From contig CAYTMO010000003.1 of the NCBI GenBank assembly GCA_964439045.1, forward strand, positions 1 through 46,430: a DNA stretch of 46,430 bases, written 5' to 3'. This document shows, one piece after another, positions 248 to 45,842 of the stretch. The notes under the pieces were generated by a model, which worked only from the letters and a program-made list of their open reading frames with translations, was not told where the DNA came from and ran no database searches. The position numbers were made by a program, and so were the translations under genes. Numbering within the stretch: position 1 is the stretch's first letter; each line of letters opens with the position of its first letter. The stretch is from an uncultured Candidatus Saccharibacteria bacterium. GTDB lineage: Bacteria > Patescibacteriota > Minisyncoccia > Phycocordibacterales > UBA9973.

Positions 248-263
248 GGTATCACGTGAAGCC
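248..263. promoter_or_regulatory. Copy of the 16-bp palindrome family (GGTATCACGTGAAGCC)
   Basis: TCACGTGA core with a GGTA flank, in non-coding DNA downstream of the leftmost gene. Confidence 0.5.
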
Positions 264-411
264 TTGCGGCGTCAGGATTGGTAGTGCAACGGAGTTTCGG
301 TCGCGGTGTAGTGAGCGGGGTTGAACTGGTGTCAGACTGCTAATGGCCGGGGATAGCTGGTGGCCGGGAGGGAGGGGCGCGAATGGAAACCCCCGCCCTC
401 CACGCCAACAG

Positions 412-651
412 TCAGGATCGTTTGGAAACGTCGGCAGTCCCGCGCAACTGCCGACGTTTCCAAAAGGGATCGAAAGCGAAGGGAACGTCGATCCACGCGT
501 GCCCATCGAGTTGGTTGATGAACCAGCGGTGTGTCGTGTTCTTGTGCCTGCGCAAGATTGCGTAGGCTTCTTTCGTCGCCCGAACGTATAGGTCGGATTC
601 GTGGCTGTCTGTCGGTATGCCAGCCTCGACCATGTCGCTATAAATGCTCAT
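412..651 (-). CDS. Hypothetical protein (79 aa)
   Basis: ATG at 651 preceded by AAAGGA 8 nt upstream. Last gene of the leftward block. The upstream extension to 693 lacks an RBS. Confidence 0.6.
   Translation of the reverse strand: MSIYSDMVEAGIPTDSHESDLYVRATKEAYAILRRHKNTTHRWFINQLDGHAWIDVPFAFDPFWKRRQLRGTADVSKRS
421..464. terminator. Perfect 17-bp inverted repeat hairpin (TTTGGAAACGTCGGCAG / CTGCCGACGTTTCCAAA), candidate end-of-operon terminator
   Basis: Arms at 421-437 and 448-464 with a 10-nt loop. It overlaps the last codons of the 412..651 CDS. The U-tract is weak in both directions. Confidence 0.35.
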
Positions 652-724
652 GTCATTTGTCCTTTCGCACCCAGCGCACCCACAGTGTTCCATCGGCGAG
701 ATAGATGACCACGCGGCGCATGGC

Positions 725-1327
725 CTAGCCCTTCCACTCGTCGCCGAAGATCACGAGGGAATGCTTGGCGATGCAAGCGTCGGCCTCCGCCTTCCATCGC
801 GGGCGTTGCGTCTCGATCCATTCCGCCAAGCGTGTCTTGGCGTCAGGGCACCCGGTACCCCAATACCGCGCCTGTTTGACGCTGGTGAACACGCCAGCGT
901 GGGCGGAGTACCCGTCGCCCATGAGCGGAAGCAGGACGGCGTCAACGTCGCGCTCATCAATGCGGAAGTGTTCGGCCAGCAATGCCCGGCGCTTCGTCCA
1001 ATCGGGTTTTGGCGAGTAGATTGCGCCCTGGTCATAGAAGCGGAAGAACCCGTTTTCCAAGGCGTACATCGGCTCGCCGTCGATGCTTGACAGATGCAAC
1101 GCGGCCAAGTCGTCGAAGCGGGTGCCGAAGTGCTTGCGGATTTCGTCGTGCGCGCATCCGCCCGAAGCGTTCCCGATGCGATGGTCGCGGAGCGTGCCAT
1201 AGCTACAGGTCAGGGAAAAGTAAGGCGACTTGTTCCCCCGGGGGTAGTGCAATCCGCCGTTGACGATGATTTGCTCGGCTTCGCCGTTGCGGGCGTAGTT
1301 TCGCGTCGCGAGTACAGGTCCCGACAT
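725..1327 (-). CDS. Hypothetical protein (200 aa)
   Basis: ATG at 1327 (MSGPVLATRNY...). The start is only 1 nt from the stop of the upstream gene (TGAcATG). The longer 272-aa ORF in the track is an upstream read-through. Confidence 0.65.
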   Translation of the reverse strand: MSGPVLATRNYARNGEAEQIIVNGGLHYPRGNKSPYFSLTCSYGTLRDHRIGNASGGCAHDEIRKHFGTRFDDLAALHLSSIDGEPMYALENGFFRFYDQGAIYSPKPDWTKRRALLAEHFRIDERDVDAVLLPLMGDGYSAHAGVFTSVKQARYWGTGCPDAKTRLAEWIETQRPRWKAEADACIAKHSLVIFGDEWKG

Positions 1328-1328
1328 G

Positions 1329-1538
1329 TCAACCCCCCTGGCGCGAGCGTTTGCATTCGGCGAAGCGTTTCTGCGCCGCGTCCAGCGTCCTGAAGCTATC
1401 CCAGGACAAGCGTCGCCGTTCGCTATCGAATGACCGCACGTGATAGACGCCGTGCTGTACGTACAGCATGACGCTACCGTTTTGGTTCGCGTCCTCTTGC
1501 ACGTAGCCACCGTGCAATGCGTAAGATGAAAGTTGCAT
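1329..1538 (-). CDS. Hypothetical protein (69 aa), bracketed by 25-bp direct repeats
   Basis: ATG at 1538 (MQLSSYALHGG...) and ends ...RSRQGG. The same junction sequence occurs at both ends. Confidence 0.6.
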   Translation of the reverse strand: MQLSSYALHGGYVQEDANQNGSVMLYVQHGVYHVRSFDSERRRLSWDSFRTLDAAQKRFAECKRSRQGG

Positions 1539-1539
1539 G

Positions 1540-1758
1540 TCAACCCCCCTGGCGCGAGCGCTGCAACGCGGCCCAGCGACGGCGAGCGGCGTCGCGTTGC
1601 GCCAGAGTGGCCAGCATTTCCTGGTGAAGAATGGCGCAGTCAAGGGGCGCGTCGTGAATGTCGCGCTCCGGGTCCGCGAAGCGTGCATCGACGGGAATGA
1701 GATAGTCGTCGACTGTGGCCAGGGTGCGACGTTCGGCGTAGCCAAGATGACGGGGCAT
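1540..1758 (-). CDS. Hypothetical protein (72 aa)
   Basis: ORF with ATG at 1758 and an AAAGGA RBS. Also ends ...RSRQGG. Confidence 0.6.
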   Translation of the reverse strand: MPRHLGYAERRTLATVDDYLIPVDARFADPERDIHDAPLDCAILHQEMLATLAQRDAARRRWAALQRSRQGG

Positions 1759-1771
1759 GGTTCGGGTCCTT

Positions 1772-2002
1772 TCAGGTTGCGAGCGAACGAAGGGCTTTGT
1801 ATGTCGGCTTGCCCTTCATGCCGATGCTACGCCACGCGGCGGTGACCGCGTCGCCGTCGTTGTTCCATTTGTTGACGGACGTGGTCAACGTCTTTTCAAC
1901 GGCGGACATGAAGCGACCGAGCTTGGCGCCGTCGCGCGCCCATTCGTAGCGCGCGAGCAATTCGCGTTGATAGGCGTCAAGGAAAGCTTGTTTCGTTGCC
2001 AT
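1772..2002 (-). CDS. Hypothetical protein (76 aa), bracketed by ~30-bp direct repeats
   Basis: ATG at 2002 preceded by AAAGGAACC. Ends ...SLAT, like the upstream gene, which ends ...APAT. Confidence 0.6.
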   Translation of the reverse strand: MATKQAFLDAYQRELLARYEWARDGAKLGRFMSAVEKTLTTSVNKWNNDGDAVTAAWRSIGMKGKPTYKALRSLAT

Positions 2003-2016
2003 GGTTCAGGTTCCTT

Positions 2017-2739
2017 TCAGGTTGCGGGGGCGAAATGCACGGCACCATGGCCATGCACAATGATCGAAACGTCGACGCGTGCTTTTGCCCGCGTTCCGCC
2101 GCACGCGCGGCACTCAGCGCATGTCGTCTTGTGGCCAGCCTCTGCCGAGGCAGGGCAAGCGATCTCGTAGGCTTCTAATGGGTCCGTCGCGCCCCTGACA
2201 CGGAACGTGCGGAAGCCTAGCAGCTTTGCGGCCGCGCGATCCGCTGACGTGTCAGCTGACGCCATGCAATACGGCGCCAGTTCGGGAAAGGCGCGCCATT
2301 GATGCGTGTAGCCACTGTGGGCCACGCTTCGTGCGGTCAGGCGTTCCCACACGTGCAAGGGTACTGCGGCAGGATCCCCATAGCTACCAATGCGCACGAC
2401 GCGGCCGGCGCCTACATCCTCGGGCGAAGCTTCGGTGTAGATGCCGCGATGGTAGGAACGCCAGACATTCTGGGGCGCCTGGAATACCAGCACGTAGCAA
2501 GAGCGGCCGCGCACCTTGACGCCGTCCGTCGTGCCGCGGTGCGGGCATTCGCCGCACACTGACGCATCGGCGCCGGAGTCGATCGCGTCGACTGGCGAGA
2601 TATCCTCGCGCAAGATCCAGGTCTGGACCATTGCACCCGTCTTGCCATTGGTGGAACGCTTGGCCAGCCCCGTTGCGATTGCGATAATTGGCGAGCCGTC
2701 CAGCATCGAGGGCCCACGGTATATGATTGCGCCGTTCAT
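2017..2739 (-). CDS. Cys-rich hypothetical protein (240 aa)
   Basis: ATG at 2739 (MNGAIIYRGPS...). Contains CGECPH and CAECRACGG motifs, suggesting metal binding. No family assigned. Confidence 0.65.
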   Translation of the reverse strand: MNGAIIYRGPSMLDGSPIIAIATGLAKRSTNGKTGAMVQTWILREDISPVDAIDSGADASVCGECPHRGTTDGVKVRGRSCYVLVFQAPQNVWRSYHRGIYTEASPEDVGAGRVVRIGSYGDPAAVPLHVWERLTARSVAHSGYTHQWRAFPELAPYCMASADTSADRAAAKLLGFRTFRVRGATDPLEAYEIACPASAEAGHKTTCAECRACGGTRAKARVDVSIIVHGHGAVHFAPAT

Positions 2740-2813
2740 GGCTTTATTCCCTTTTCTGAAGCTTCTGGCGCTTCGTGCTAGGCGCGAGACAAGCCCACGC
2801 CTAGCCCGCAACG

Positions 2814-3329
2814 TCAGGCGCGGAATGCATGCCTTAAAGCGGGAAACATGTAGTCGGGCAGCGAGCCGTAGTATTCGACGTCGCCTCCCATATCCTCCAA
2901 GACAAACTTGCGCTGATCGATCGGGAAAAAGCCGTTCTCTTCCTTGTACTCAAGCTGCCCGATCACTTCGGCTTCGATGATGCGCCGGAACAGAAGCGAC
3001 GACGCATCGCCATAGACGGTCGCGAGTTGCGTTTGCTGTAGCGCGCAAACCTTGCGCTCGCCAGCGTCGTCAAAGCCGGCATTGGCGAGGATGTGGCAAG
3101 CGTCGTGCCACGCGCGAGCGGCAAGGTTCATCTCGGGATCGCCGTATATGGTGCGATCGCAGTGGAGCGACGACACTGTGATGACGCCATCGCGCTTCGC
3201 TCGCGCCTTGAGTTGCGCCAGTGACGACGGCGCGTTGCGCGAGACATTCCATCCGCGCGGGTTGGTCAGGCGTGCGAGGCGAAGTGTGGCCACGTTGAAC
3301 GCGGGAAACATCGGCTTAAGCATGTTCAT
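2814..3329 (-). CDS. Hypothetical protein (171 aa)
   Basis: ATG at 3329 (MNMLKPMF...) preceded by AGGAGT. The upstream part of the 255-aa ORF is Arg/Pro-rich read-through. Confidence 0.65.
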   Translation of the reverse strand: MNMLKPMFPAFNVATLRLARLTNPRGWNVSRNAPSSLAQLKARAKRDGVITVSSLHCDRTIYGDPEMNLAARAWHDACHILANAGFDDAGERKVCALQQTQLATVYGDASSLLFRRIIEAEVIGQLEYKEENGFFPIDQRKFVLEDMGGDVEYYGSLPDYMFPALRHAFRA

Positions 3330-3417
3330 TACTCCTAGGGTTAGATTGTGGAGCGGACGTACAGGAAGACGATGTAAGTGGCGAGCGCAAGCGCCCCGAA
3401 CAGGCCGATCGGCACGG

Positions 3418-3651
3418 TCAAACACTCCCTTGCTTGGCGGGGATTGCACCTTCGGTCGCGCCATGCTCGATCGTGGCCACGAGCGTGTCCATGGCGTCTT
3501 GCGCGTCGTCTGTGTAGTAGGCGCGATCCTCGCACCACTGCGGGTCACGCGGCCGATACGGCGCCACGCGGTATTCGCCATCGCGCTTGCTGACGCTGTA
3601 TTCGTTAGCGCGAGCTACGGCTTTCAGGGTTTCGAGCTTGATACGCGCCAT
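3418..3651 (-). CDS. Hypothetical protein (77 aa), first gene of the left early block
   Basis: ATG at 3651 (MARIKLETLK...) preceded by GAAGGGA. Lies downstream of the repeat-rich control region. Confidence 0.6.
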   Translation of the reverse strand: MARIKLETLKAVARANEYSVSKRDGEYRVAPYRPRDPQWCEDRAYYTDDAQDAMDTLVATIEHGATEGAIPAKQGSV

Positions 3652-3740
3652 GTGGCGTTCCCTTCGTTGTTGATGATGTGAGATTGCGCCTGTACTCCGA
3701 GCATGACAAGCGCTTCGTGAGCGTGAACGCAAGAAAGCAA

Positions 3741-3835
3741 TGACGTTGCGCATCTTCGATGGATTGTTGCGCGTTAGCTGGTGAGCAGCGCATGATTGTT
3801 GCGGCGATCGTTTGCGTACGAATGATCGTTGCGCA
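3741..3835. repeat. Four spaced copies of TGAYNGTTGCG (operator or iteron-like)
   Basis: TGACGTTGCG at 3741, GATTGTTGCG at 3762, TGATTGTTGCG at 3793 and TGATCGTTGCG at 3823. Spacing is about 21, 31 and 30 bp. Non-coding, upstream of the leftward gene at 3651. Confidence 0.55.
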
Positions 3836-3960
3836 CCAGGGAAGCGGCGACGCGGGCATTGGCTAGCGTGAGCATATTACTAGTTGGCAATATAGCGATG
3901 CAGGCATGTGTAATGGGCGTTACACTTCGCGAGTGAATTGGATCATGGGTCGATGGTCAT

Positions 3961-4104: not shown

Positions 4105-4116
4105 ACGTTATAACGT
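4105..4116. promoter_or_regulatory. 12-bp AT-rich palindrome ACGTTATAACGT (copy 1)
   Basis: Perfect palindrome. An identical copy lies at 4420-4431. Confidence 0.5.
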
Positions 4117-4434: not shown

Positions 4435-4450
4435 GGTATCACGGGATACC
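4435..4450. promoter_or_regulatory. Palindrome-family site GGTATCACGGGATACC, 4 nt upstream of a -35 box
   Basis: 7 of 8 positions are self-complementary. Same GGTATCAC arm as five other sites. Confidence 0.55.
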
Positions 4451-4454
4451 GCGC

Positions 4455-4483
4455 TTGACACTCGAAATGGGCTCATGTAGCTT
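4455..4483 (+). promoter_or_regulatory. Candidate sigma70-type late promoter (TTGACA, 17-nt spacer, TAGCTT)
   Basis: Consensus -35 box at 4455-4460 and a -10 box at 4478-4483 with T1, A2 and T6. It is the only strong promoter-like site ahead of the 28-kb rightward block. Confidence 0.5.
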
Positions 4484-5368: not shown

Positions 5369-6963
5369 AGCCACGCGGGGAGTTCAACTACGACGTCGAA
5401 CTGGCCAAGATGCTGGCCAACTTCTATGGCGACCCGATGGGGTACGTCATGTTCTGCTTCCCGTGGGACAGCAACCCCGAGATCCAGCTCGTCGAGCTTC
5501 AGGAGCCCTGGCGCTCAAAGTACAAGAGCCGCTTCGGCCCCGACAAATGGGCGTGCGAGTTTCTGGAACAGTGGGGCGAGGAGATCCGCTCCCGACGTTT
5601 CGACGGCACCAGATCCGTGCCGGCGATCCAGTTCTCGACCGCTTCGGGCCACGGCATCGGCAAGTCGACGCTGACGGCGTGGATCATCAAGTTCATCATG
5701 GACACGAGGCCCTTCGCCAAGGGCACGGTCACGGCCGGCACGGACACGCAGCTTCGCACGAAGACGTGGTCGGAGCTGGGCAAGTGGCATTCGCTATCGC
5801 TGACGCGCAACTGGTTCCAGTGGAACACCGGGCGCGGGGCGATGAGCCTCACGCACAAGCAGTACCCGCGCTGGGCCTGCACGGCGCAGACCTGTCGCGA
5901 GGAGAACTCGGAAGCCTTCGCGGGTCAGCACGCAGCGAACTCGACCTCGTTCTACGTGTTCGACGAAGCCTCCCAGATCCCCGACAAGATCTACGAAGTC
6001 CGAGACGGCGGCACGCTGACCGGCGAGGCCATGACGTTCGACTTCGGCAACCCGACCCGCAACAGTGGCCGGTTCTTCGAGCAGTGCGTGGGCAAGCTCA
6101 AGCACCGCTACAACGTGCGCATGATCGACAGCCGTACGGTCTCGATCACCAACAAGGAGCGCATGGAGCAGTGGCGCCAGGACCACGGCGACGAGAGCGA
6201 CTACTTCAAGGTTCGCGTCCGCGGCATGTTCCCCTCGAAGGGCTCGGCGCAGTTCATTCCGACCGAAGACGTCCTGGCTGCGGCATCACGTGATGCCTTC
6301 ACCGATCGCACGGCGCCCCTCATCATCGGGGTGGACGTGGCCCGCTTCGGCGACGACAGCTCGGTGATTTACCCGCGCCTGGGCATGGACGCGCGCTCGT
6401 TCGCGCCTACGACCTCGAAGGGCATCTACAAGGGCCTGGACACGGTGCAGTTGGCCGGCAAGGTCAAGGAGACGATCGGCGAGTTCAGGTCCAGGGGCAA
6501 GAACTGTTCGGCCCTGTTCGTGGACGGCGGCGGCATCGGCGGCGGCGTCGTCGATCAGCTCAGGCACTCGGGATACGATCCGATCGAAGTGCAGTTCGGC
6601 GGCAAGCCCACGGACGTTGCGACCTACCGCTTCAAGATCGACGAGATGTACGGAGCGCTGCGTTCAGCCTTGGCCGGCAGGTTGGCCATCCCCGCCGAAG
6701 GGTCGGAGATCGGCAACATCCTGAAAGAGCAGTTGACGCAGCGCGAGTTCTCCTATACCCTTTTGGGGAACAAGATCAACCTGGAGAGCAAGAAGGACAT
6801 GAAGGAGAGGCTCGGGGGCGAATACTCCTCCCCTGATGAAGCCGATGGGCTAGCTCTCACCTTCGCCCAGGACATAGCAGTTGACGTCGGCCTGGGGATG
6901 GTCGATAACGCACCGCGGCAAGCCATTCACGACTACGACCCCTACTCTGACGACGAAGGATGA
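5365..6963 (+). CDS. terL: Terminase large subunit (532 aa)
   Basis: Walker-A-like SGHGIGKST motif, with size and position typical of terL. Start chosen at the ATGA overlap; the alternative start is 5335. Confidence 0.85.
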   Translation: MKPRGEFNYDVELAKMLANFYGDPMGYVMFCFPWDSNPEIQLVELQEPWRSKYKSRFGPDKWACEFLEQWGEEIRSRRFDGTRSVPAIQFSTASGHGIGKSTLTAWIIKFIMDTRPFAKGTVTAGTDTQLRTKTWSELGKWHSLSLTRNWFQWNTGRGAMSLTHKQYPRWACTAQTCREENSEAFAGQHAANSTSFYVFDEASQIPDKIYEVRDGGTLTGEAMTFDFGNPTRNSGRFFEQCVGKLKHRYNVRMIDSRTVSITNKERMEQWRQDHGDESDYFKVRVRGMFPSKGSAQFIPTEDVLAAASRDAFTDRTAPLIIGVDVARFGDDSSVIYPRLGMDARSFAPTTSKGIYKGLDTVQLAGKVKETIGEFRSRGKNCSALFVDGGGIGGGVVDQLRHSGYDPIEVQFGGKPTDVATYRFKIDEMYGALRSALAGRLAIPAEGSEIGNILKEQLTQREFSYTLLGNKINLESKKDMKERLGGEYSSPDEADGLALTFAQDIAVDVGLGMVDNAPRQAIHDYDPYSDDEG

Positions 6964-14115: not shown

Positions 14116-14131
14116 GGGATCACGTGATGCC
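14116..14131. promoter_or_regulatory. Palindrome-family site GGGATCACGTGATGCC containing the portal start codon
   Basis: 10-bp perfect core ATCACGTGAT. The ATG at 14127 is part of the right arm. Confidence 0.5.
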
Positions 14132-18320: not shown

Positions 18321-18357
18321 GGGGCCGGTGTCACGTGATGCCGGCCCCACTCTTTCA
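18321..18357 (+). terminator. Hairpin terminator/attenuator after the capsid-cement genes
   Basis: GGGGCCGG at 18321-18328 pairs with CCGGCCCC at 18341-18348, followed by ACTCTTTC. The loop and inner stem carry the TCACGTGA palindrome. Confidence 0.5.
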
Positions 18358-22158: not shown

Positions 22159-22616
22159 TCTACGGCATGGACATAGCCTCCAGCCAGGATCTGGAGTTCA
22201 TCGCCGCGAACATGGACCCAGCAGACGTGGCCGAGGTATGGGCGATGGGGCGCAAGACGCCCCTCGAAGCCTTGGAGGCGTCGTCCAAGGTTTCACGTGA
22301 GACCTACGTCGGACTGGCCTACGGGGTGCCTATCTGCGCCTTCGGCATCGGACAGCGCACGCTGCTGGACAACGTCGGCATCCCTTGGCTGCTCGGCACG
22401 CCCGAAATCCGCAAGCACCCGAGGCCCTTCCTGCGCGTCTCCAAGAACTGGGTCGAGCGGGCGGCGCGGGGGTACACCAGACTTGAAAACTGGGTCGACG
22501 TCCGTCATACTAGGGCGGTGAAGTGGCTCAAGTGGTTGGGCTTCACGGTCGAAGCACCTACGCCTTTCGGGCCTGACCTGATGCCGTTCCACCGTTTCCA
22601 CATGGAGAGCCGATAA
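22155..22616 (+). CDS. Virion protein at the T7 gp13 position (153 aa)
   Basis: GTGA overlap with the nozzle gene stop; an alternative ATG is at 22167. First of four consecutive overlapping genes. Confidence 0.6.
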   Translation: MIYGMDIASSQDLEFIAANMDPADVAEVWAMGRKTPLEALEASSKVSRETYVGLAYGVPICAFGIGQRTLLDNVGIPWLLGTPEIRKHPRPFLRVSKNWVERAARGYTRLENWVDVRHTRAVKWLKWLGFTVEAPTPFGPDLMPFHRFHMESR

Positions 22617-30161: not shown

Positions 30162-30178
30162 GGTATCACATGATACCT
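30161..30178. promoter_or_regulatory. 18-bp near-perfect palindrome AGGTATCACATGATACCT upstream of the tail fibre gene
   Basis: 8 of 9 positions are self-complementary, in the 31-nt gap between 30161 and 30193. A 2-nt centre is too short for an RNA hairpin loop, which favours a protein-binding site. Confidence 0.55.
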
Positions 30179-33048: not shown

Positions 33049-33543
33049 CTAGAATGCTTTGCGATCGAAGCCGTGGAAGCGACAGACCTTGTCGGCCGCC
33101 GCCTGGAAGTCGCGCCCGTGCTCGCCGCGCACGCCTCGGCGATCGCAGTGGGCGTGGATCATCTCGTGCGCCATGACACGCATGAGCATGTCGGTCGTGC
33201 CGATGTTGGTGGTCGAGCACCGGATCACATGCTTGGTGCCGAGCATCGTGTGGTCGCCGAGGATCTCTTTGTGCTTGGTCACATGGAACTCGACCTCGTC
33301 AGCGTCGGGCAGACGCCAAGCGCTGAAGGGCCGGGACACGCGCAGGTACTCGTAGGCGGCGGCCATGAGATCCGGCGTCAGGTGGAACAGGGTCGACACG
33401 GCAGCCTCCTGAGTGTGCTCGGTGAGCACTTGGTACTGGTTGTGGTGCATCACGTGATCCCGCCTCTGGGCCAGGGTCTGATGCGGGCCGAGGGGCTCGC
33501 CAAGCTGAACCCACTCGACGACCTTAACCTCTCCGATCCGCAT
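33049..33543 (-). CDS. SprT-like zinc metalloprotease domain protein (164 aa)
   Basis: HEMIH motif in an SprT-like context. ATG at 33543 follows GGGGAGG by 6 nt, and third-position GC bias continues upstream of the alternative start at 33450. Confidence 0.6.
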   Translation of the reverse strand: MRIGEVKVVEWVQLGEPLGPHQTLAQRRDHVMHHNQYQVLTEHTQEAAVSTLFHLTPDLMAAAYEYLRVSRPFSAWRLPDADEVEFHVTKHKEILGDHTMLGTKHVIRCSTTNIGTTDMLMRVMAHEMIHAHCDRRGVRGEHGRDFQAAADKVCRFHGFDRKAF

Positions 33544-38869: not shown

Positions 38870-39544
38870 TTAGCCCCGGCGACTGCGGCGGCCCTCGCTG
38901 GCCGCCCCCTCGGTGCGCCCGACCGGCTTGAACAGCTTCGAGGTATCACGTGAGGACGCCAGCTTCTCGCCGTCGCGCGTCTTCTGGAAGGCGACGAACC
39001 AGAACTTCACGTGCTTGTCGTCCGAGCCCACGTCGCGCCCGGCCGAGATCGTCACGGCGAGGATGCCGTAGCAGCCGGGGTAGACGAGGCCGGAATTGCC
39101 CTCGACGATGCCGATCGGATTGGTCTGCTCGTCGTAGACCGACACGCCGCCGGGGCCGTCGGTGCCGTCCTTGTTGAACTTGGTCGACGCGCGCACGATA
39201 AGCTTGCCCTTGTAGGCGTCGCCGGGCTTGCCCTTCTCCTCGCGCTTGGCCGCATACTTCGTGCCGTCGATGAACGGCAGCCGGATGTCGCCATTGAGGA
39301 ACTCGTCCTCGACCTTCTTCGTGTCGCCCCACTCGTCGAGCGCCGCCTGGAGCAGCGCGTCCTCGATCGTGCCCTCGCCCTCGACCTGCTTCGGGTCGTA
39401 GACCATCTCGATCTTGTAGAGCGGGTCGCCCTTCTTCCCACGCGGGTCCTCGTAGACGTCGCGCTCGAACAAGGCGTGGTTGATCAGCCGCCCCTCGGGC
39501 AGCATGAACACGGGCTTCTCTTTCTTCTTCGCGTCGGTTGCCAT
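38870..39544 (-). CDS. DUF2815-like phage single-stranded DNA-binding protein (224 aa)
   Basis: ATG at 39544 (MATDAKKKEKPVFMLPEGRLINHALFERD...). Family recognised by sequence and by its position next to the DUF2800-like nuclease and PolA. Confidence 0.7.
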   Translation of the reverse strand: MATDAKKKEKPVFMLPEGRLINHALFERDVYEDPRGKKGDPLYKIEMVYDPKQVEGEGTIEDALLQAALDEWGDTKKVEDEFLNGDIRLPFIDGTKYAAKREEKGKPGDAYKGKLIVRASTKFNKDGTDGPGGVSVYDEQTNPIGIVEGNSGLVYPGCYGILAVTISAGRDVGSDDKHVKFWFVAFQKTRDGEKLASSRDTSKLFKPVGRTEGAASEGRRSRRG

Positions 39545-39681: not shown

Positions 39682-40850
39682 TTCTTGCTCCCCTTCTTGA
39701 CCGGCTGGAACAGGGACTTCGTGTCGCGGTTGACGGCCGGTCGCGCGTCATCCATTGGCACCAGTGTCAGCCCGGCCTCGGGCTTGAAGGCGTAGCGGGC
39801 GGCCATGGCCTTGCCCTCGGGCAGCTTCTCGACGGAAGCCGGGGACAGGAGCTTCGGCTCCTCGTAGGCGCCCTTGCCATACTTGGCGACGAGGGCGTCC
39901 TTGGCGTCTTCCTTCCACTCGCGGTTGACCTTGGCCGACCCGAGCTTCCACTTCTCGAACGTGGCGCCGTGCTGGAGGCGGTTGAACGCCGTCTTCTTCA
40001 CCGCGGCGGAGACGATCTTCATGACCCCCTCCAGTTCCAGGTAGCGTTCGACCTGGGCGTTGGTCAGTTCCTCGGCGCCCTTCTCGCTCGCCTTGATCTG
40101 GTTGGCCATGGTCGTGAACTCCTCGAAATCCTTCAAAAGCTGCGGGCAGGCGCGGAAGCGAGCCGGGCAGAAGCGGCAGTGCTCCCCGCTCTCGGTATCA
40201 CGTGAGACCATCGCCCGATCCATGGCCGGCAGCAGCTTCTCGACGAGCCAGATGTCGAGATCCTGGACCGAGATCGTCCACTCGCGCACCGGGCCGGAGC
40301 TGTGCCAGCCGCGGGGCTGAGCGATGACGATGCGGATCGTGTCGATGTCCTTCCAGAGATCGAGCGTCTCCATGATGCCGCCCGCGTAGTAGAGGCACTG
40401 CGGGTTCCAGGGCACCTCGACGACGACGCCCATGCCGTGCTTGTAGTCGACGATCAGAAGCTCACGCTTGGCGCTGAAGTGGTAAGCGAAATCGATACCG
40501 CCGTAGTAGAGCGGGTGCAGCGTCGGAGCATGGAACTTGTGTTCGATCAGCCCGTACCTGACGTCAGAAACCTCCTTCCTGATCCAGTCGACGTAGACCT
40601 GGACCGCGTCGGCCATGTCCTTGTCGACCTTGAAGCCCTTGATCTCGTCGCCGATGAACGTCCAGGCGTCGCGCACCGTGAGCAGGCAAAGCTCGCCCAG
40701 GTGGTGGGCCGCCGTCCCGCGCGCCGCGTGCTCGCTCTCGTCGTCCTCGACCCCTTCGCTCAGTGAAACCGAGCCAGGGCACTTCATGAACCGATGCGTG
40801 GCCGAGCCGCCGAGGGGGCTGTGGCCGACCGGTGCGTCATCGAGTGGCAT
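39678..40850 (-). CDS. DUF2800-like PD-(D/E)XK nuclease with a Cas4-type Cys cluster (390 aa)
   Basis: IVDYKHG nuclease core and the C-terminal CRFCPARFRACPQL motif. Confidence 0.75.
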   Translation of the reverse strand: MPLDDAPVGHSPLGGSATHRFMKCPGSVSLSEGVEDDESEHAARGTAAHHLGELCLLTVRDAWTFIGDEIKGFKVDKDMADAVQVYVDWIRKEVSDVRYGLIEHKFHAPTLHPLYYGGIDFAYHFSAKRELLIVDYKHGMGVVVEVPWNPQCLYYAGGIMETLDLWKDIDTIRIVIAQPRGWHSSGPVREWTISVQDLDIWLVEKLLPAMDRAMVSRDTESGEHCRFCPARFRACPQLLKDFEEFTTMANQIKASEKGAEELTNAQVERYLELEGVMKIVSAAVKKTAFNRLQHGATFEKWKLGSAKVNREWKEDAKDALVAKYGKGAYEEPKLLSPASVEKLPEGKAMAARYAFKPEAGLTLVPMDDARPAVNRDTKSLFQPVKKGSKK

Positions 40851-41528: not shown

Positions 41529-43850
41529 TCAGATCGAGTGCTTGTGGTCAAGCGCTTGATAGATGGCGACGTCTTTTCTGATCGCCGTCGACATCACACG
41601 CTCGTCCAACGTGCCCGGCACGACCGGGATGTGGCCGATGACGCGGTCGCCCGTCTGCCCCTTGCGGTGGATGCGATCGAGGGCTTGATCGTTGCGTCCT
41701 GGCACCCAGTCAGGCTCGGCCAGTACTACGTCCTGCGCCTGCGTCAGCGTCCAGCCTTCGCCGATCACCGCGGTCTGGCCGAGGATGATCCTGGTCTTCT
41801 CCTGCGATTGGAACTGGTCGACCGCCAACTGCTTCTTCGCCGCCGAGGTCGAGCCGTCCATGTAGACGAGGCCGTACTTGGAGAGCTTGTCGCGTAGGTA
41901 GTGCAGGACCGACGTGTGCCACGCCGTCACCACGAGCTTGTCGACGCCGCTCTCCAGCAGATCCTCGACGTACGCAGCGACGCTCGGCATCTTCGCTTCG
42001 CCCAGCATCTTGCGCGCCGTCGAGATGGCGCCGTCGACCGGGATGCCGTCGTTGAATGCGTCCGCGTCCATCTCGTAGAGCTTCGAAGCGATGGCCCAGC
42101 CTGGGTGCTTTAGCGCGCGCCGCATCTCGCTCGTCACCTCCATCGGGAAGGTGTGCCACTGCTTCGGCGGCAGTTCGTGCAGCACTTGCTCCTTCAGGCG
42201 CCGCACCATGATGTGCTTGCGCAAGCGGCGCTGCAACTCGTCGAGGTTCCGCGGCACGTTGCGCACTTTCTCGGACCAGTGCAACTTGTTCGACCACGCC
42301 TGCGTCGCAGGATCGTAGACCGGGCCACGCACCATGCCGCCGCCGAGGTCGTAGTAGTGCTCCCTGAACGCCTCCAGGCTCATGCGGTCGATCGCGTCCC
42401 AGTTAAGCAGGCGCACGGCGTTGTAACAGTTATGGACGACGAGCGGCCCGGCGTTTGACAGGATGGTAAACCTTTGCCGAGGCCCCGCATTCACAAGATC
42501 GTAGACGGGCCTCAAGCTCAAGGACTCTCTCCTGCAATTCCCTGATTGATCTTCTATTCCGCGCGTTCTCAAGCTGAGTGACGCACCGCAAATTCCCAGG
42601 TTCGTACCCTCGGTTGACGTCGATCCGGTCCAGTTCGAGGGACCTATCGTCCCATCCTGGGAGCCCCATGAGGTAAGCGAGGAACTTTCGTCTGCCTTCT
42701 CTCCCTTCTCTCCACTCGCCGAAAACTGATATCCCTCGCCCGCCGTAGCTAGCCCAAGATTGATGTTTGGGGTTGTGGCATCTCTGGATGCATTGATGAA
42801 TGCGCTGCAAGCTCCATCGACGGAGTGCTTTGTCAGGGCATAGTCTGCTGTACGCTGTGTCTCGCTCCCTATTGGACTTCCTGATGTGGCACCTGCGGCA
42901 CCGAGCACGCGGTCTCGTGCGGAGCTTGTCCGCGTGCACTCGGTAGGGGTCGGAGCCGCAAGAGCACCGCACCCAAGTTGCCGCCAAACCGCCCCTAGGT
43001 CCTCGGTCGAGGCTAACGACAGTAAGCTCGCCAAACCTGTCTCCAACGCGCGGCTCATCGTATACTCGCACGCGGCCAGGGCGTGCGCCGGGGACCAAGC
43101 ACCCCCCACTAACGTTTCGTGGTCGGGGGTCATCTCCACCCCGCAGATCTTCATAGTTTCGCGTCCCCCCCGGTACACTAAGCCGCTGTGCCGCACCCAT
43201 TCTACACCGTCCCACAGTAGATCGTTGTCTGAGACGTCGATGATGGCCCTCCACCCCCCATTCGTCAAGACTAAAGTGTCTGGGCCTAAACATTCGATCG
43301 GTTGATTCGGCAGGATCGTGCCGCTCGCCAGCGTGATGCGCCCGGCCACGGAAGGGATGCAATCGGGTGCACAAATGGCGCGGGTGCGGGTGTTGCCCTT
43401 CGGGTCCTTGATCGCGTGCGCTTCGTCCAGGATCACGTGATCCCACATCACATCGAGGATCGCGTCGAGGATCGACTTGTTGGCCAGCAGTGCGTAGGAG
43501 ATGATCACGTAGTTGGCGTCGAGGCTGACGCCGTCCGAGGACTTGAGCACGGGGTAGGTGCTCACGTTCGGGATCGTCGACCACGCCCAGATCTCGCGCT
43601 CCCAGTTCAGCCTAAGACTAGCTGGGCACACAACGAGAGTATGTTTAGCGCCAATAGCATTCCCCAGTAGGATGCATTCGGCAGTCTTTCCCAGACCAGG
43701 AGCATCACCAAACAGATGGTGATTACGAGCGAGACCATACTCAACACCAGCATGTTGGTACTCCATGGGTTTCATGCCCGGCGGTGCCGGGGCACGGTAG
43801 AACTGGGGCGCCACCGCTCGGCTGCGCTCGACTTGGTAGTCTGTCGTCAC
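41529..43850 (-). CDS. SNF2/DEAH-family helicase precursor (773 aa) interrupted by an intein
   Basis: GLGKT (motif I), ILDEAH (motif II) and SGTILPNQPIE (motif III, split by the intein), with C-terminal helicase motifs. GTG start overlaps the upstream stop. Confidence 0.8.
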   Translation of the reverse strand: MTTDYQVERSRAVAPQFYRAPAPPGMKPMEYQHAGVEYGLARNHHLFGDAPGLGKTAECILLGNAIGAKHTLVVCPASLRLNWEREIWAWSTIPNVSTYPVLKSSDGVSLDANYVIISYALLANKSILDAILDVMWDHVILDEAHAIKDPKGNTRTRAICAPDCIPSVAGRITLASGTILPNQPIECLGPDTLVLTNGGWRAIIDVSDNDLLWDGVEWVRHSGLVYRGGRETMKICGVEMTPDHETLVGGAWSPAHALAACEYTMSRALETGLASLLSLASTEDLGAVWRQLGCGALAAPTPTECTRTSSARDRVLGAAGATSGSPIGSETQRTADYALTKHSVDGACSAFINASRDATTPNINLGLATAGEGYQFSASGEKGEKADESSSLTSWGSQDGTIGPSNWTGSTSTEGTNLGICGASLSLRTRGIEDQSGNCRRESLSLRPVYDLVNAGPRQRFTILSNAGPLVVHNCYNAVRLLNWDAIDRMSLEAFREHYYDLGGGMVRGPVYDPATQAWSNKLHWSEKVRNVPRNLDELQRRLRKHIMVRRLKEQVLHELPPKQWHTFPMEVTSEMRRALKHPGWAIASKLYEMDADAFNDGIPVDGAISTARKMLGEAKMPSVAAYVEDLLESGVDKLVVTAWHTSVLHYLRDKLSKYGLVYMDGSTSAAKKQLAVDQFQSQEKTRIILGQTAVIGEGWTLTQAQDVVLAEPDWVPGRNDQALDRIHRKGQTGDRVIGHIPVVPGTLDERVMSTAIRKDVAIYQALDHKHSI
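42429..43292 (-). mobile_element. Intein (288 aa) within the SNF2 helicase
   Basis: Starts CLGPDTLVLTNGGW, has TPDHETLV (block B-like), and ends NAGPLVVHN followed by Cys. The interior is less GC-rich than the flanks. Confidence 0.75.
42430..43071 (-). CDS. HNH homing-endonuclease-like ORF (about 213 aa) nested in the helicase intein, in a different frame
   Basis: RFGELTVVSL, CSCG...CRRC, CHNPKHQSWASYGGRGI and LDRIDVNRGYEPGNLRCVTQLENARN motifs. TAA stop at 42430-42432. The start is uncertain: GTG at 43071 has no clear RBS. Confidence 0.55.
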   Translation of the reverse strand: MRVYDEPRVGDRFGELTVVSLDRGPRGGLAATWVRCSCGSDPYRVHADKLRTRPRARCRRCHIRKSNRERDTAYSRLCPDKALRRWSLQRIHQCIQRCHNPKHQSWASYGGRGISVFGEWREGREGRRKFLAYLMGLPGWDDRSLELDRIDVNRGYEPGNLRCVTQLENARNRRSIRELQERVLELEARLRSCECGASAKVYHPVKRRAARRP

Positions 43851-44078: not shown

Positions 44079-44234
44079 TCAATCTCTCCCCGGTTTGTGA
44101 TACTCGCGACGCACGCTGTAGCCCAGCTCGCGCCACATGTCCGACCACGCCTTGCATCCGTCGCTGTCAAGCCCGGTCAAGCTCAGGCCGGCCACGAGCA
44201 CGCCCGCCTTGAAGACCGCCAGCGTGCAGGTCAC
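44079..44234 (-). CDS. Small membrane protein candidate (51 aa; not in the ORF track)
   Basis: GTG overlaps the upstream stop (GTGA). Strong third-position GC bias. Translation begins MTCTLAVFKAGVLVAGLSLTG. Confidence 0.4.
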   Translation of the reverse strand: MTCTLAVFKAGVLVAGLSLTGLDSDGCKAWSDMWRELGYSVRREYHKPGRD

Positions 44235-44407
44235 CAGTACCCCTGCTCGACTATGCCGACGACAGAGACAGGGTAGTGCTTCAGCAGATCGCGCGCTTTC
44301 AAGCGCAGCTCACGGGGCACCCGCGGCGTCTGCTTGGGGTCCATCAACGCCAGGAGGAACTTGCGCGTCTTAAGGACCGCGCGTGTCCTTTCATGCGGGA
44401 GCGTCAT
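44231..44407 (-). CDS. Hypothetical protein (58 aa)
   Basis: ATG at 44407 (MTLPHERTRAVLKTRKFLLAL...) lies 5 nt after GGGGA. Confidence 0.55.
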   Translation of the reverse strand: MTLPHERTRAVLKTRKFLLALMDPKQTPRVPRELRLKARDLLKHYPVSVVGIVEQGYW

Positions 44408-44502
44408 GTCGATCCCCAACAGTGCGAGAGAAAGGTGCCGGCTTCGAGGCCACTGGCCGGCGCAGTGTGCGTGCCCCGAGCGCGGGGTACCTCAGTCTCG
44501 TG

Positions 44503-45330
44503 TCAGGTCTTGCGCGTGCGGCGCAGGCCGGGCGGGATCGCGAGCGGATCGTCGTCCGCCGCGGTGGTCTGCGGCTCGCCGTCGCCGAGCGCGGAGACGA
44601 ACTTGCCGCCGACCTCGGCCGCCGCGAAGCGCACGAAATCCATCTTGTCGCGGGCGGTCAGGGCCATGAAGGACGCCTTGAGCGCATCCAGGCCCTCGGC
44701 CTTCTTCATCTCGACGCCCTTGGCCTGCTGCTTGAGCGCGGAGACATCCGTCTTGCTGAGCACTTCGAGGCCGGCGTCCGCGGCGAACGCGCGCACCGCC
44801 TTCATGGCCTCCTCCGGCTTGACGCTCAACAGTACCTCGGCCGGGCCGAAGACCTTGCGCTCGATCTCCTTGACCTTCTTCTTCGCGCGGTGCGCCTTGT
44901 TCGCCGCCGCGTTCTTTTTCCTCATGTCCTCCAGAGCGATCTGCGGGTTCGGGCTGCCGCCGACGACGGCCAGCTTCCGCACGGTCTCCCAGCTCTGATC
45001 CTTGACATTGTCCTCGACCCACTTGCGGAAGCCGATGCCCTGCGCGCCGCAGAGCTTCTTCGCTTCTTCGAGGCGCAGCGCGGCGGCGAGGCGATGGTCG
45101 TCGGCCTGCCCGTCGAGCTTGGCGATTTTCTCGAAGCGCACGTTGATCTCGTTGGCGATCGGCGCGAGCTTCTTGTCGAACTGCTCGACCGTCAGCTTCT
45201 TCGGCACCTCGACGACGGCGACGTTGGTCTTGGGCTTCTTCGCGGGCTTGGCCTTCGCCTTGCCCTCTTCCTTGAACTTGCGCGCGACGGCTTCCGCACG
45301 CTCGGCGCGCTCCGACTTCTCTTCGAACAT
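44503..45330 (-). CDS. Lys/Ala-rich hypothetical protein (275 aa), possible DNA-binding protein
   Basis: ATG at 45330 follows GGGGAGA. First large gene downstream of conserved element copy 3. Confidence 0.65.
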   Translation of the reverse strand: MFEEKSERAERAEAVARKFKEEGKAKAKPAKKPKTNVAVVEVPKKLTVEQFDKKLAPIANEINVRFEKIAKLDGQADDHRLAAALRLEEAKKLCGAQGIGFRKWVEDNVKDQSWETVRKLAVVGGSPNPQIALEDMRKKNAAANKAHRAKKKVKEIERKVFGPAEVLLSVKPEEAMKAVRAFAADAGLEVLSKTDVSALKQQAKGVEMKKAEGLDALKASFMALTARDKMDFVRFAAAEVGGKFVSALGDGEPQTTAADDDPLAIPPGLRRTRKT

Positions 45331-45336
45331 GGGTAT

Positions 45337-45381
45337 CTCCCCGAGGGTTTAAATCGCTGCCGGTCTCTCCCGGCTGTCACG
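45337..45381 (-). promoter_or_regulatory. Conserved upstream element, copy 3
   Basis: Minus strand reads CGTGACAGCCGGGAGAGACCGGCAGCGATTTAAACCCTCGGGGAG. A U-to-C change keeps the 5-bp stem paired. Confidence 0.6.
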
Positions 45382-45442
45382 CCTACTTCATGTGTCTCGG
45401 GCGTTCGAAGTCTTCATAAGCTACGCGAGAGCTTGTCTCGTG

Positions 45443-45787
45443 TCAAGCGCCTCGAACGCGGTAAGCGATCGGCGCAGCGCCAACGGGCATGCGAAGGTGG
45501 CCGGCGCGGCAGCCGTCGAAGTAGAAGGCGACGAGGAAGTGGAGGCCATCGGGCAGCAGCCAGAGAGTTACGTGCGAGACCTGGGCGACGACTTCGTCCG
45601 GTGCGCCCGCGCGCTGAGCGAACTTCTGCGCCTCCATACCGACGAGACGGAATGCGGTGGGCTGGTTGTGCTGCTCAAGGATCGACCGCGCGTCGGCGTC
45701 GGGGGTCGAGCACTCCTGCGCTTTGATGCCCGACGAAGAAGATACCCCCAGGGCCAGAGCCGCGGCGAACGCGATCGATCGGAGCAT
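45443..45787 (-). CDS. Secreted/periplasmic small protein (114 aa)
   Basis: ATG at 45787 follows AGGAGG. N-terminal signal peptide MLRSIAFAAALALGVSSSSG. Confidence 0.6.
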   Translation of the reverse strand: MLRSIAFAAALALGVSSSSGIKAQECSTPDADARSILEQHNQPTAFRLVGMEAQKFAQRAGAPDEVVAQVSHVTLWLLPDGLHFLVAFYFDGCRAGHLRMPVGAAPIAYRVRGA

Positions 45788-45813
45788 GGGAGCCTCCTGT
45801 GATGAAGACCTCC

Positions 45814-45842
45814 AAGGTATCACGCGATCCCACGAAAGTCAA
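45814..45842 (-). promoter_or_regulatory. Candidate leftward early promoter (TTGACT, 17-nt spacer, TACCTT) overlapped by palindrome-family site 45816-45831
   Basis: -35 box at 45837-45842 and -10 box at 45814-45819 on the minus strand. GGTATCACGCGATCCC covers the -10 box and the spacer. Confidence 0.5.

Follow-up and report, generated by a model that had tools for sequence, protein, structure and literature searches.

The window analysed here is the whole stretch of 46,430 nucleotides. It carries a short palindrome at promoters, at gene junctions and inside genes, which raises the question whether these copies exceed chance and what role they may have. The window represents a podovirus. Its structural genes are BPP-1-like, its replication module is of the PolA/SNF2/DUF2800 type, and no close relative was found among sequenced isolates.

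Palindromic sites in the window

A sequence-only reading had listed 12 copies of the palindrome by eye, and all of them lie where it had placed them, with the sequences it had given (Table 1). When the window was compared with 100 dinucleotide-preserving shuffles of itself, copies of GGTATCACGTGATACC with up to 3 mismatches numbered 12, against a mean of 0.03 and a maximum of 1 in the shuffles. The flanked motif TCACGTGA occurred 9 times with 1.0 expected and was enriched, as no shuffle reached 9. The bare core CACGTG was neither enriched nor avoided (15 copies against 16.7 expected), and 13 of these 15 cores had a T directly at their 5' side. The 8-mer GGTATCAC was present six times on the plus strand and not at all on the minus strand, with about 0.5 expected for each. 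The sequence-only reading had given the same figures for the cores, their flanks and the plus-strand 8-mer, and had already judged the bare core not obviously above chance.

A symmetrised weight matrix made from the 12 window sites gave two-peaked scores. All 12 sites reached at least 20.3 bits, and the window was empty between 10 and 20 bits. The 12 palindromes are genuine and stand far above chance. Six of them lie within genes and are read in the two codon phases that had been noticed by eye, four as xSRD/E and two as DHV. The motif looks like an element under selection in its own right, at the level of the DNA. As small corrections to the two copies described as perfect, no copy but that at 6282 is a perfect 16-mer palindrome, and that at 43430 is a perfect 14-mer inside AGGATCACGTGATCCC, which starts at 43429. 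The earlier descriptions of the surroundings (late promoter, portal start, post-capsid terminator, tail fibre, early promoter) were broadly right.

Table 1. Motif copies and neighbouring elements in the window, with their counterparts in the close relative contig or the family
Feature	Position	Strand	Context	Counterpart
Motif GGTATCACGTGAAGCC	248..263	.	~1-kb non-coding stretch joining the window ends, beside the CGGGATTG iteron cluster	
Palindrome ACGTTATAACGT	4420-4431		Directly precedes the motif copy 4435..4450	
Motif GGTATCACGGGATACC	4435..4450	.	Upstream of small terminase gene; ends 4 nt before TTGACA (4455-4460)	
Sigma-70-like promoter, TTGACA (4455-4460), 17 nt, TAGCTT (4478-4483)	4455..4483	+	Heads rightward (packaging/structural) arm; read from the sequence, absent from the output of a strict consensus promoter scan	
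Motif GGCATCACGTGATGCC	6282..6297	.	Within large terminase gene, codon 316, reads A-S-R-D-A	
Motif GGGATCACGTGATGCC	14116..14131	.	Directly 3' of the stop of ORF 13900-14115; overlaps portal start (GTG 14124 / ATG 14127)	16/16 identity in close relative
Motif GGTGTCACGTGATGCC	18327..18342	.	After Bbp16-like gene; tip of longer GC-rich inverted repeat 18321-18348 (GGGGCC...GGCCCC)	16/16 identity in close relative despite diverged flanks
Motif GGTTTCACGTGAGACC	22289..22304	.	Within ORF 22155-22616, codon 45	Retained in close relative with 3 changes
Motif GGTATCACATGATACC	30162..30177	.	Directly 3' of the stop of a 1677-aa gene; 15 nt before ATG (30193) of tail-fibre-like gene	Position common to ~9 distant family members
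Motif TGCATCACGTGATCCC	33446..33461	.	Within SprT-like gene (- strand), codon 33	
Motif GGTATCACGTGAGGAC	38942..38957	.	3' end of Enc34-type SSB gene (- strand), codon 265	Better copy in close relative, GGCATCACGCGATGCC; just past the SSB stop in other family members
Motif GGTATCACGTGAGACC	40194..40209	.	Within DUF2800 nuclease gene (- strand)	Not kept in close relative
Motif AGGATCACGTGATCCC	43429..43444	.	Within SNF2 helicase gene (- strand); codes W-D-H-V-I-L just before the DEAH box	Identical in close relative
Motif GGTATCACGCGATCCC	45816..45831	.	Head of leftward (early/replication) arm; - strand order TTGACT (45842-45837), 5 nt, motif, 28 nt, ATG (45787, first gene of the arm)	
-35-like hexamer TTGACT	45837..45842	-	At a distance from the motif that is fixed in a subset of family promoters	

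The motif in related phages

An exact scan of IMG/VR for GGNATCACGTGATNCC gave many multi-copy contigs among the matches listed, from at least dozens of uncultured relatives. When the core was altered to GGNATTACGTAATNCC as a control, the scan yielded 71 matches, all single-copy. Homologues of window genes (terminase, portal, capsid, PolA, SNF2, DUF2800 and g44503) were found in 75 of 120 loci among the matches listed, and the proteins of the motif-bearing relatives were 35-74% identical to those of the window. At least 233 non-redundant family sites were collected from loci of 43-66.5% GC, and at least 72 of them had the perfect consensus. Sites recurred at equivalent places across the family, namely ahead of the portal and tail-fibre genes, behind the decoration gene and at the early promoter. 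The motif marks a whole family of uncultured short-tailed phages and not the window genome alone, which lay beyond the view of the sequence-only reading.

The family consensus spans 16 bp, or 18 bp with the flanking T...A, and reads T-GG(T/G/C)ATCAC and GTGAT(A/C/G)CC-A to the left and right of its centre. The dyad symmetry runs through this centre and reaches T(-1)/A(+17), and the ACGT core is invariant. Some lineages differ in the bases around it. The variant TTACGTAA characterises locus L134, where five of seven copies pair G3 with A14, one has C3 with A14 and one, a reverse complement, has T3 with C14; TGACGTAA was found in L140 and TAACGTGA in L104. In alignments of the window with the close relative, a raw within-site substitution of about 17% was counted, and the surrounding blocks diverge by 17-30%. 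Substitution within the sites is not below that of the surroundings, a point against the operator-like reading given below; only the kind of change is constrained.

By independent gene calls, 25 of 39 sites were intergenic in DNA that is 79-88% coding (binomial p 2e-11). Between about one third and one half of the family sites lie in coding sequence. Starts 0-3 nt past a stop codon were 7-fold enriched, and the motif position peaked 12-21 nt before the next ATG. In a subset of sites a TTGAC -35 box stands exactly 6 nt upstream. TTGAC starting 12 nt upstream of the motif was counted 7 times with 0.5 expected, and this geometry recurs in at least 4 unrelated promoter contexts, the window site 45816 included. 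Ahead of the homologous gene, the relatives L136 and L142, which lack the motif, have ordinary promoters of the TTGACA-N16/17-TATACT type. Recognisable sigma-70 promoters adjoin only a minority of sites and the site-to-gene geometry is otherwise variable, so that a function outside transcription would fit as well.

The spacing of the sites is more even than chance, since the coefficient of variation (CV) of the gaps was below the random mean in 23 of 24 contig segments (Fisher p ~1e-13). It was 0.21 in the close relative and 0.57 in the window taken as a circle (p 0.035). Depending on the phage, a site is met every 0.8-4 kb, about one copy per gene block, with gaps of about 0.8 kb among small early genes and of 2.6-4 kb among large late genes.

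Possible functions of the sites

The best explanation, which we hold tentatively, is that a dimeric sequence-specific dsDNA-binding protein, possibly host-encoded, recognises the motif copies, which would serve as dispersed operators or as roadblock-like sites. We infer that a protein binds the sites, that it binds as a dimer and that its binding affects transcription. At early promoters the site would fill the spacer and the -10 region, so that a bound protein would shut these promoters. Additional points of binding or blockage would be supplied by the copies squeezed between the stop of one gene and the ribosome-binding site of the next, and by those within long genes. A single protein might then control or silence both transcription arms together, in a mode that may be likened to dispersed operators, 'stoperators' or KorB operator (OB) sites. 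The sequence-only reading had proposed sites for a dimeric phage regulator. The DNA-level element, probably a dimer site, is the best-supported part of that proposal, whereas the binders it had named found no support (see below). Of the two outcomes that would have refuted that reading, no excess over shuffles and absence from equivalent positions in related phages, neither was observed.

Two observations are not predicted by a pure dsDNA model. Where positions were imperfect, G.U-compatible combinations prevailed on the sense strand (33 against 10 in all; counted by gene cluster, 17 against 6, p 0.035), with the same trend within genes, and about 4% of the sites, the window copy 18327 included, lie in extended stems whose flanks differ yet are complementary, at about 10 times the control rate. 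Both speak for a hairpin at the RNA (or single-strand) level between cistrons, with a stem of 6-7 bp and an ACGU loop, which could be an mRNA 3' stabiliser, an attenuator/terminator or a processing/protein-binding hairpin. Its canonical form was predicted at -7.8 to -10 kcal/mol, and the sites hug the upstream stop codon and sit just 5' of the Shine-Dalgarno sequence. However, the sequence itself and not the pairing alone is conserved over phages of 43-66% GC, and the loop is itself palindromic, its ACGT being invariant across the motif classes. Every L134 copy is mismatched at the third pair, and for this class virtually no hairpin is predicted (-0.7 kcal/mol; the consensus has -7.8), and in the L140 and L104 classes pair 6:11 is consistently mismatched. 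More than a third of the sites are inside coding sequence and some are in promoter spacers or upstream of -35 boxes; no Rfam family matched, and the U tract is missing at most sites. We consider the hairpin unlikely, although an RNA-level component may contribute.

Slightly less probable again are evenly spaced loading or recognition sites for DNA metabolism instead of gene regulation, for instance for a ParB/KorB-like sliding clamp (possibly host ParB), a condensing/segregation factor or a replication/packaging factor. The markedly even spacing, with copies within long genes filling would-be gaps, and the variable geometry relative to genes are in line with this. Iteron clusters have a site on either side in the window (45816 and 248 around CGGGATTG), in L104 and in L141. 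The likeness to chromosomal parS is a lead only. Loading sites that act at a distance have a precedent (PMC11790492). Against such sites, no ParB/ParA, primase or other candidate for such a role is encoded in the window, which lacks the Prim-Pol gene of most relatives, and no ParB-family protein was seen in the relatives' gene tables. Moreover, the site density tracks gene density, so a role per gene fits better than a role per length, and a universally conserved host parS would not account for core variants such as TTACGTAA.

It is improbable that the sites are operators of the window's own RHH repressors, bound by dimers or tetramers like Mnt, Arc and omega, as the sequence-only reading had considered. 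The window does encode two RHH-domain proteins (38464-38679 and 32384-32710), site 38942 is some 260 nt upstream of one RHH gene, and the RHH operators of P22 Mnt (GGTCCACGGTGGACC) and the omega heptads (WATCACW) resemble the motif. However, homologues were present only in the one close relative, and none turned up in the 7565 ORFs of some 80 family loci that bear the identical motif. Relatives without the RHH gene still have the site downstream of the SSB gene, and the motif-rich relatives with gene calls, L135, L139 and L141, showed no RHH/HTH Pfam domain in their early/replication regions. Since outside the window they occur only in the closest relative, the RHH proteins are not the family-wide binder. 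Least probable of all is a restriction-modification or methylation target, also suggested earlier, or a short conserved linker promoting modular phage recombination: CACGTG is a known type II recognition sequence, and sites stand at gene boundaries and flank accessory genes, e.g. on both sides of the L139 integrase gene, but no methyltransferase or restriction endonuclease domain was found in any window ORF scanned, CACGTG occurs at chance frequency, and homology breakpoints between family genomes showed no enrichment at sites (10 against 9.2 expected within 10 nt, 39 against 29.8 +- 5.4 within 50 nt).

For the favoured dispersed operators, a binder was also sought among the other phage proteins. 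Clustering of ORFs gave no conserved small regulator in the family. The only conserved non-enzymatic early protein, g44503, had no match to a DNA-binding fold, did not co-vary with the motif class and is present also in motif-less genomes. Because the window RHH proteins do not qualify and the family has no such small regulator, the putative binder would be either a host protein or a conserved phage protein of no assigned function.

Comparison with known systems

In number and distribution the sites are similar to the T7-type promoters and RNase III sites, of which 10-17 conserved elements occur per 40-kb podovirus genome, ahead of scaffold, capsid and tail-fibre genes, sometimes in upstream genes, and beside the replication origin. 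T7 promoters, however, are 23-mers without symmetry that a phage RNA polymerase reads, and no RNA polymerase was detected here; RNase III sites form long hairpins of irregular shape rather than 16-bp palindromes. The start-associated sequence (SAS) of Cluster K mycobacteriophages is a conserved short motif with about 10-20 copies per genome immediately upstream of translation starts, and is not known to have a function. It is asymmetric and includes the ribosome-binding site, whereas the palindrome lies 5' of that site, is linked more often to the stop codon before it and occurs also in genes and promoters.

The parS consensus, TGTTTCACGTGAAACA, is a perfect 16-bp palindrome with the same central TCACGTGA and shares 12 of its 16 positions with the motif; the differences fall at positions 1 and 4 of both half-sites. 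Whereas parS sites are clustered near the origin, the motif sites are evenly dispersed, and a universal parS does not account for the family variants TTACGTAA or TGACGTAA. Plasmid RK2 carries 12 OB sites. These palindromic operators are dispersed over a replicon of about 60 kb, near and far from promoters, and load KorB, a ParB-family CTP clamp, which silences genes at a distance (PMC11790492). The motif shares with OB the dispersal of one palindromic sequence over a replicon. The OB sequence, TTTAGC(G/C)GCTAAA, is different, and KorB and KorA are plasmid-encoded, whereas neither the window nor the relatives' gene tables showed a ParB-family protein.

The stoperators of Cluster A mycobacteriophages are present in more than 20 copies genome-wide, at promoters and in short intergenic spaces of both arms, and their L5 gp71-type immunity repressor is proposed to block initiation and elongation (PMC9283540). 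They are asymmetric 13-mers, bound by a monomer and active in only one orientation, whereas the motif is a palindrome of 16-18 bp with about a third to a half of its sites inside genes. The L5 repressor is known and phage-encoded, whereas no cognate protein was found for the motif. Stoperator phages are temperate; the window has no integrase, whereas the family member L139 has one. What the two systems have in common is many copies of one short site over a whole phage genome, at promoters and between genes.

The palindrome in the window and across the phage family

The motif is real, and the finding reaches considerably further than was visible to the sequence-only reading. The twelve places listed in that reading are exactly all matches to GGTATCACGTGATACC with up to 3 mismatches in the window, where dinucleotide-preserving shuffles gave a mean of 0.03. 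The twelve sites were turned into a symmetrised weight matrix, under which all 12 reached at least 20.3 bits, and the range of 10-20 bits was empty elsewhere in the window. The other counts made by eye were reproduced: the bare CACGTG occurred at chance level (15 observed vs 16.7 expected), the flanked core TCACGTGA was enriched (9 vs 1.0), T preceded 13 of the 15 cores, and the six intragenic copies used two reading phases. The perfect half-site GGTATCAC was found six times on the + strand and zero times on the - strand, irrespective of gene direction. This strand asymmetry is absent from the close relative, a 35-kb IMG/VR contig with 70-83% DNA identity to window 13957-45850.

In this relative, sites 14116, 18327 and 43429 are 16/16 identical, 18327 lying within diverged intergenic flanks, and sites 22289, 30162, 38942 and 45816 are changed yet still recognisable. 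Site 40194 is missing and 33446 falls in a non-aligning stretch. Additional copies are present within the 7.9-kb (22289 to 30162) and 5.5-kb (33446 to 38942) gaps of the window.

An exact scan of IMG/VR for GGNATCACGTGATNCC matched at least 120 stretches. Among the matches listed, many contigs carried 3-12 copies each, and 75 of 120 loci encoded homologues of terminase, portal, capsid, PolA, SNF2, DUF2800, SSB and g44503 (the conserved early 275-aa protein of the window) with 35-74% identity to the window; loci outside those 75 were nearly all single matches. The control scan with GGNATTACGTAATNCC returned 71 stretches, all single matches, which sets the chance level. The family loci among the matches listed hold 233 non-redundant sites, 97 of them perfect palindromes and 72 the perfect consensus, in DNA of 43-66.5% GC. 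Position 3 is T more often than G and G more often than C, and never A. The dyad symmetry reaches one base further out (T...A, 18-mer form TGGTATCACGTGATACCA), and no conserved flank was found in the family sites beyond T(-1)/A(+17). Family members have the class TCACGTGA, TTACGTAA, TGACGTAA or TAACGTGA, or none. A substitute palindrome in the motif-less relatives was not supported, as L136 contains CCTGGCGCCAGG just three times and L142 contains none. In the full-text library searched, TCACGTGA combined with phage, as well as ATCACGTGAT, TATCACGTGATA and GATCACGTGATC, led only to primers and to papers on eukaryotic E-box/CLEAR-box elements, and none placed the sequence in a phage.

Judged from these sequences, the motif is a hallmark of the phage family. 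It is also a practical family marker, since one exact-pattern scan found dozens of relatives that were missed by single-query protein searches; single-protein scans of metagenomes and genomes had added just one near-identical contig and one unrelated MAG.

The window had no megablast match among GenBank phages, and tblastn with capsid, PolA, TerL and SNF2 reached distant isolates only; neither search found a cultured close relative there. The best identities were 61% for the capsid (Burkholderia KL4/BcepC6B), 44% for TerL and 37% for PolA. Scans of the window detected no tRNA genes and no Rfam families. The scanned ORFs of the window showed no integrase domain. The family member L139 does encode an integrase, which lies between two motif copies, and at least one member of the family may therefore be temperate.

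The genome has two arms (table). The distance between TerL and portal, filled in the window by the Ig-domain proteins, is just ~1 kb in relatives such as L077 and L115. The Prim-Pol/AAA_25 gene occurs in 23 family loci including the closest relative and is not found in the window, where a leftward block stands in its place. The close relative has neither window intein and carries its own insert in PolA instead. Its independent assemblies from different samples (L001, L002 and L010) all start 146-184 nt upstream of the portal gene, pointing to either a physical end of the genome or a hypervariable break there. The early and replication regions of family members contain genes of the anti-defence type, namely an S-AdoMet lyase (L134, L141), a Tad2-like protein (L135, L142) and an Acb2/Tad1-hairpin protein (L139).

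Features of the window and of relative loci or contigs (L-numbers)
Sequence	Position	Strand	Feature
Window	about 4597-32292	+	Rightward arm: small terminase (PF03592), large terminase, two large Ig-domain proteins, T7-type portal (PF12236), Bbp19-like protein, scaffold, GP7-type major capsid protein, Bbp16-like protein, T7 gp14-like protein, 1677-aa protein, tail-fibre-like protein
Window	45823-32293	-	Leftward arm: signal-peptide protein, conserved 275-aa g44503, SNF2 helicase, DUF2800 nuclease, Enc34-type SSB, RHH protein, family A DNA polymerase, small PD-(D/E)XK protein, intein-containing protein, SprT-like protein, DUF6378, second RHH protein
Window	1-240		Cluster of short iterons, CGGGATTG/CAATCCCG in either orientation, within non-coding DNA that links the two window ends, between motif copies 45816 and 248
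L104	10100-10340		Iterons CTTACCAAC, between two motif copies
L141	300-400		Iterons AATGCGAATGA, between two motif copies
Window	1-3860	-	Block in place of Prim-Pol: lower GC (~60%), unknown-function ORFs phrog_2554, phrog_7806, phrog_17696
L007	2242-4260		Prim-Pol/AAA_25 primase-helicase gene
Window	4105-4116, 4420-4431		Perfect 12-bp palindrome ACGTTATAACGT, in the 737-bp non-coding region between the arms
L141	about 107-126		GTTATAATGTAAC, similar to ACGTTATAACGT, in the equivalent region of this distant relative
Window	4160-4400		Low-complexity, repeat-like non-coding DNA upstream of the late promoter, units e.g. CCCCAGAAAAACGAAGCAAGATAAGATCT, CCAGAAAAATCGAGAAC
Window	7319-13899		Ig-domain proteins (1349 and 567 aa) between large terminase and portal; DUF1573, Big_7 and PcRGLX-like matches
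Window	33694-35823	-	ORF with Hint/intein domains
Window	42426-43300	-	875-bp in-frame intein insert in SNF2 gene; CLGPDT start, VVHNC end
Close relative	22555-23412		Insert in PolA
Window	45443-45787	-	First gene after the early promoter: 114-aa protein, N-terminal signal peptide
L041	4113-4466		Another signal-peptide protein family, without a window member, recurring in early regions of other members
L138 (DATGXU010000147)	10001-11047		g44503 homologue in a Magnetospirillum MAG, alone on the chromosome with pgk and metH as neighbours

Placement and spacing of the sites

In five relatives with independent gene calls, 25 of 39 sites were intergenic or straddled a gene boundary, in DNA that is 79-88% coding (p ~2e-11). 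Across the family, motif starts 0-3 nt downstream of long-ORF stop codons were 7-fold enriched, and about 60 sites show the order stop codon, motif, Shine-Dalgarno and ATG, in which 12-21 nt separate the motif end from the ATG. Distant members reuse the same junctions (ahead of the portal, Bbp19-like, g18738-homologue and tail-fibre genes, and behind the Bbp16-like gene). The early regions of L104 and L141 are packed with small genes and have a copy ahead of nearly every gene.

A subset of the sites is embedded in promoters. TTGAC started exactly 12 nt upstream of the motif in 7 cases vs 0.5 expected, with further cases at -11 and -13, and TTGAC downstream of the motif was at chance level. This layout occurs in at least four unrelated promoter contexts, window site 45816 included, and there the motif occupies the spacer and the -10 region. 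Two motif-less genomes of the family have ordinary promoters of the TTGACA-N16/17-TATACT type before the homologous gene. A fixed promoter architecture was rejected, as the flank is unconserved outside the 18-mer and the excess of -10-like hexamers is modest. Consensus promoter and terminator scans of the window stayed at chance level and were uninformative.

The sites are evenly spaced. The coefficient of variation (CV) of the gaps was below the random-placement mean in 23 of 24 contig segments (combined Fisher p ~1e-13); it was 0.21 in the close relative, with gaps of 2.0-4.4 kb, and 0.57 in the window taken as a circle (p 0.035). The mean gap tracks gene size, from ~0.8 kb among small early genes to 2.6-4 kb among large structural genes. 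Pairs of motif copies flank iteron clusters in the window, L104 and L141, the iterons themselves differing between these genomes, and the cluster may be a replication origin. The second ACGTTATAACGT copy directly adjoins motif 4435.

Duplex site or hairpin, and the search for the binder

We tentatively favour, at somewhat under even confidence, the reading that the sites are dispersed, operator- or roadblock-like positions for one putative dimeric DNA-binding protein, which would act from them on both transcription arms. The main rival, a role as RNA or as a single-strand hairpin, appears unlikely. Several points favour recognition of the duplex by a dimer. Conservation concerns the sequence and not pairing alone, across very different base compositions, and the dyad passes through the exact centre, where ACGT is invariant. 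Individual lineages carry altered classes of their own, TGACGTAA in L140, TAACGTGA in L104 and TTACGTAA in L134. In L134, G3 faces A14 in five of the seven copies and C3 faces A14 in one, the seventh being the reverse complement; with this fixed mismatch the predicted hairpin has only -0.7 kcal/mol vs -7.8 for the consensus. Extended stems were seen at just ~4% of the sites, window 18327 included, and over one third of the sites lie inside genes. A test for a stable stem-loop with compensatory changes, and with a U tract for terminators, was negative, terminator-like matches were at chance level and an Rfam match was not found. Three features are nevertheless not predicted by a pure duplex model, and an RNA or single-strand component is therefore kept as the main rival: the sites lie close behind the upstream stop codon, the variant classes with asymmetric sites (L104, L140 and L134) mostly run in the direction of the genes, and G.U-compatible combinations on the sense strand are favoured at imperfect positions. 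This bias amounts to 33 vs 10 overall, 17 vs 6 when counted by downstream-gene cluster (p 0.035) and a non-significant 12 vs 5 inside genes, and it leaves a partial role as structured RNA open. Candidates for a hidden RNA polymerase were set aside, the 1677-aa, 650-aa and 709-aa proteins having no PDB sequence similarity except to inteins.

A distributed DNA function other than transcription is slightly more doubtful again. As a separate idea, the sites were considered as recombination linkers; against this, breakpoints of homology between family genomes show no excess at them. The suggestion of the sequence-only reading that the motif is a restriction-modification or methylation target was not supported, since CACGTG stands at chance and the window encodes no such enzyme domain that we could find. 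Primase recognition sites were rejected for the window, which has no Prim-Pol homologue.

The binder was sought among the encoded proteins. The two RHH proteins of the window (ORFs 38464-38679, 71 aa, and 32384-32710, 108 aa) had been proposed, but homologues of both were found solely in the close relative (phmmer against 7565 family ORFs), and the site after the SSB gene is kept in relatives that lack the RHH gene. The only conserved early protein without an enzyme domain is g44503, whose gene often comes right after a promoter that bears the motif. A confident AlphaFold model of it (pLDDT 84) is all-helical and gave no significant PDB fold match, and its sequence had no match in Pfam or the PDB. 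It is unsupported as the binder. Its best-conserved helix is unchanged between canonical, variant and motif-less genomes, and the protein shows no co-variation with the motif. Further homologues of g44503 were seen in L138 and in L137, an unrelated temperate phage with RecT and integrase, so the domain is wider than the phage family of the window. Clustering of all family ORFs yielded no conserved small regulator, only structural proteins, a PD-(D/E)XK protein and a secreted protein. Pfam hits for ParB and ParA were zero in the window ORFs scanned and in the precomputed tables of L134-L142, and methyltransferase, RNA polymerase and primase were not found in the window. With these candidates absent or unsupported, the binder is either encoded by the host or a conserved phage product without a recognisable DNA-binding domain.

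Sites of the CRP/FNR family (e.g. NtcA, GTA-N8-TAC) are 5+6+5 palindromes centred near -41.5 of the activated promoters. Formally the motif would fit the GTA-N8-TAC layout; its centre, however, is invariant, and at visible promoters it is located at about -15 or between -47 and -60. As leads, it may also be compared with parS, which it would match at 12 of 16 positions, and with F sopC, the P22 Mnt operator and the omega heptads.

We regard it as improbable that the palindrome is a previously undescribed genome-punctuation system, in which a conserved DNA-binding protein of the host is brought in by evenly spaced docking sites over the full length of the genome. One candidate would be a clamp of the ParB kind, with the parS-like TCACGTGA core as its loading point, and the recruited protein would time, silence or protect the genome. 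Docking of a host protein would explain why a phage-encoded binder was not found, and why phages share one 16-mer despite wide differences in GC. In a second variant, the sites would instead act as hairpin-type signals at which an as yet unrecognised transcription enzyme of the phage starts.

Should one protein dock at all these sites, an uncultured podovirus family would have a simple genome-wide control layer, readable from sequence as a 16-mer at gene blocks and early promoters. If that protein belonged to the host, the family would exemplify phages that tie their whole genome to a host regulator. The motif is a defined bait for the binder and, through it, possibly for the hosts, and a test case for the upkeep of evenly spaced sites inside coding sequence.

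Comparison with known operator systems

Under the favoured reading, the nearest counterparts are Cluster A mycobacteriophage stoperators (PMC9283540) and RK2 KorB operators (PMC11790492). Stoperators of the L5 type are likewise dispersed in many copies over promoters and short intergenic spaces; the window has 12 copies, and the family sites include a promoter-embedded subset. However, L5-type stoperators are asymmetric and oriented with transcription, whereas the consensus here is a perfect palindrome; they co-occur with a phage-encoded repressor, which was not found here, and their phages are temperate, whereas the window ORFs scanned showed no integrase and one family member, L139, has one. 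The ParB-parS and KorB-OB systems share a palindromic site of similar length (13-16 bp, here 16-18 bp), but have a ParB-family CTPase, usually with ParA, on the same replicon, and neither was found in the window or in the tables of L134-L142. The motif is unlike both stoperators and KorB operators, having no identifiable cognate protein and being a palindrome whose evenly spaced copies lie partly inside genes.
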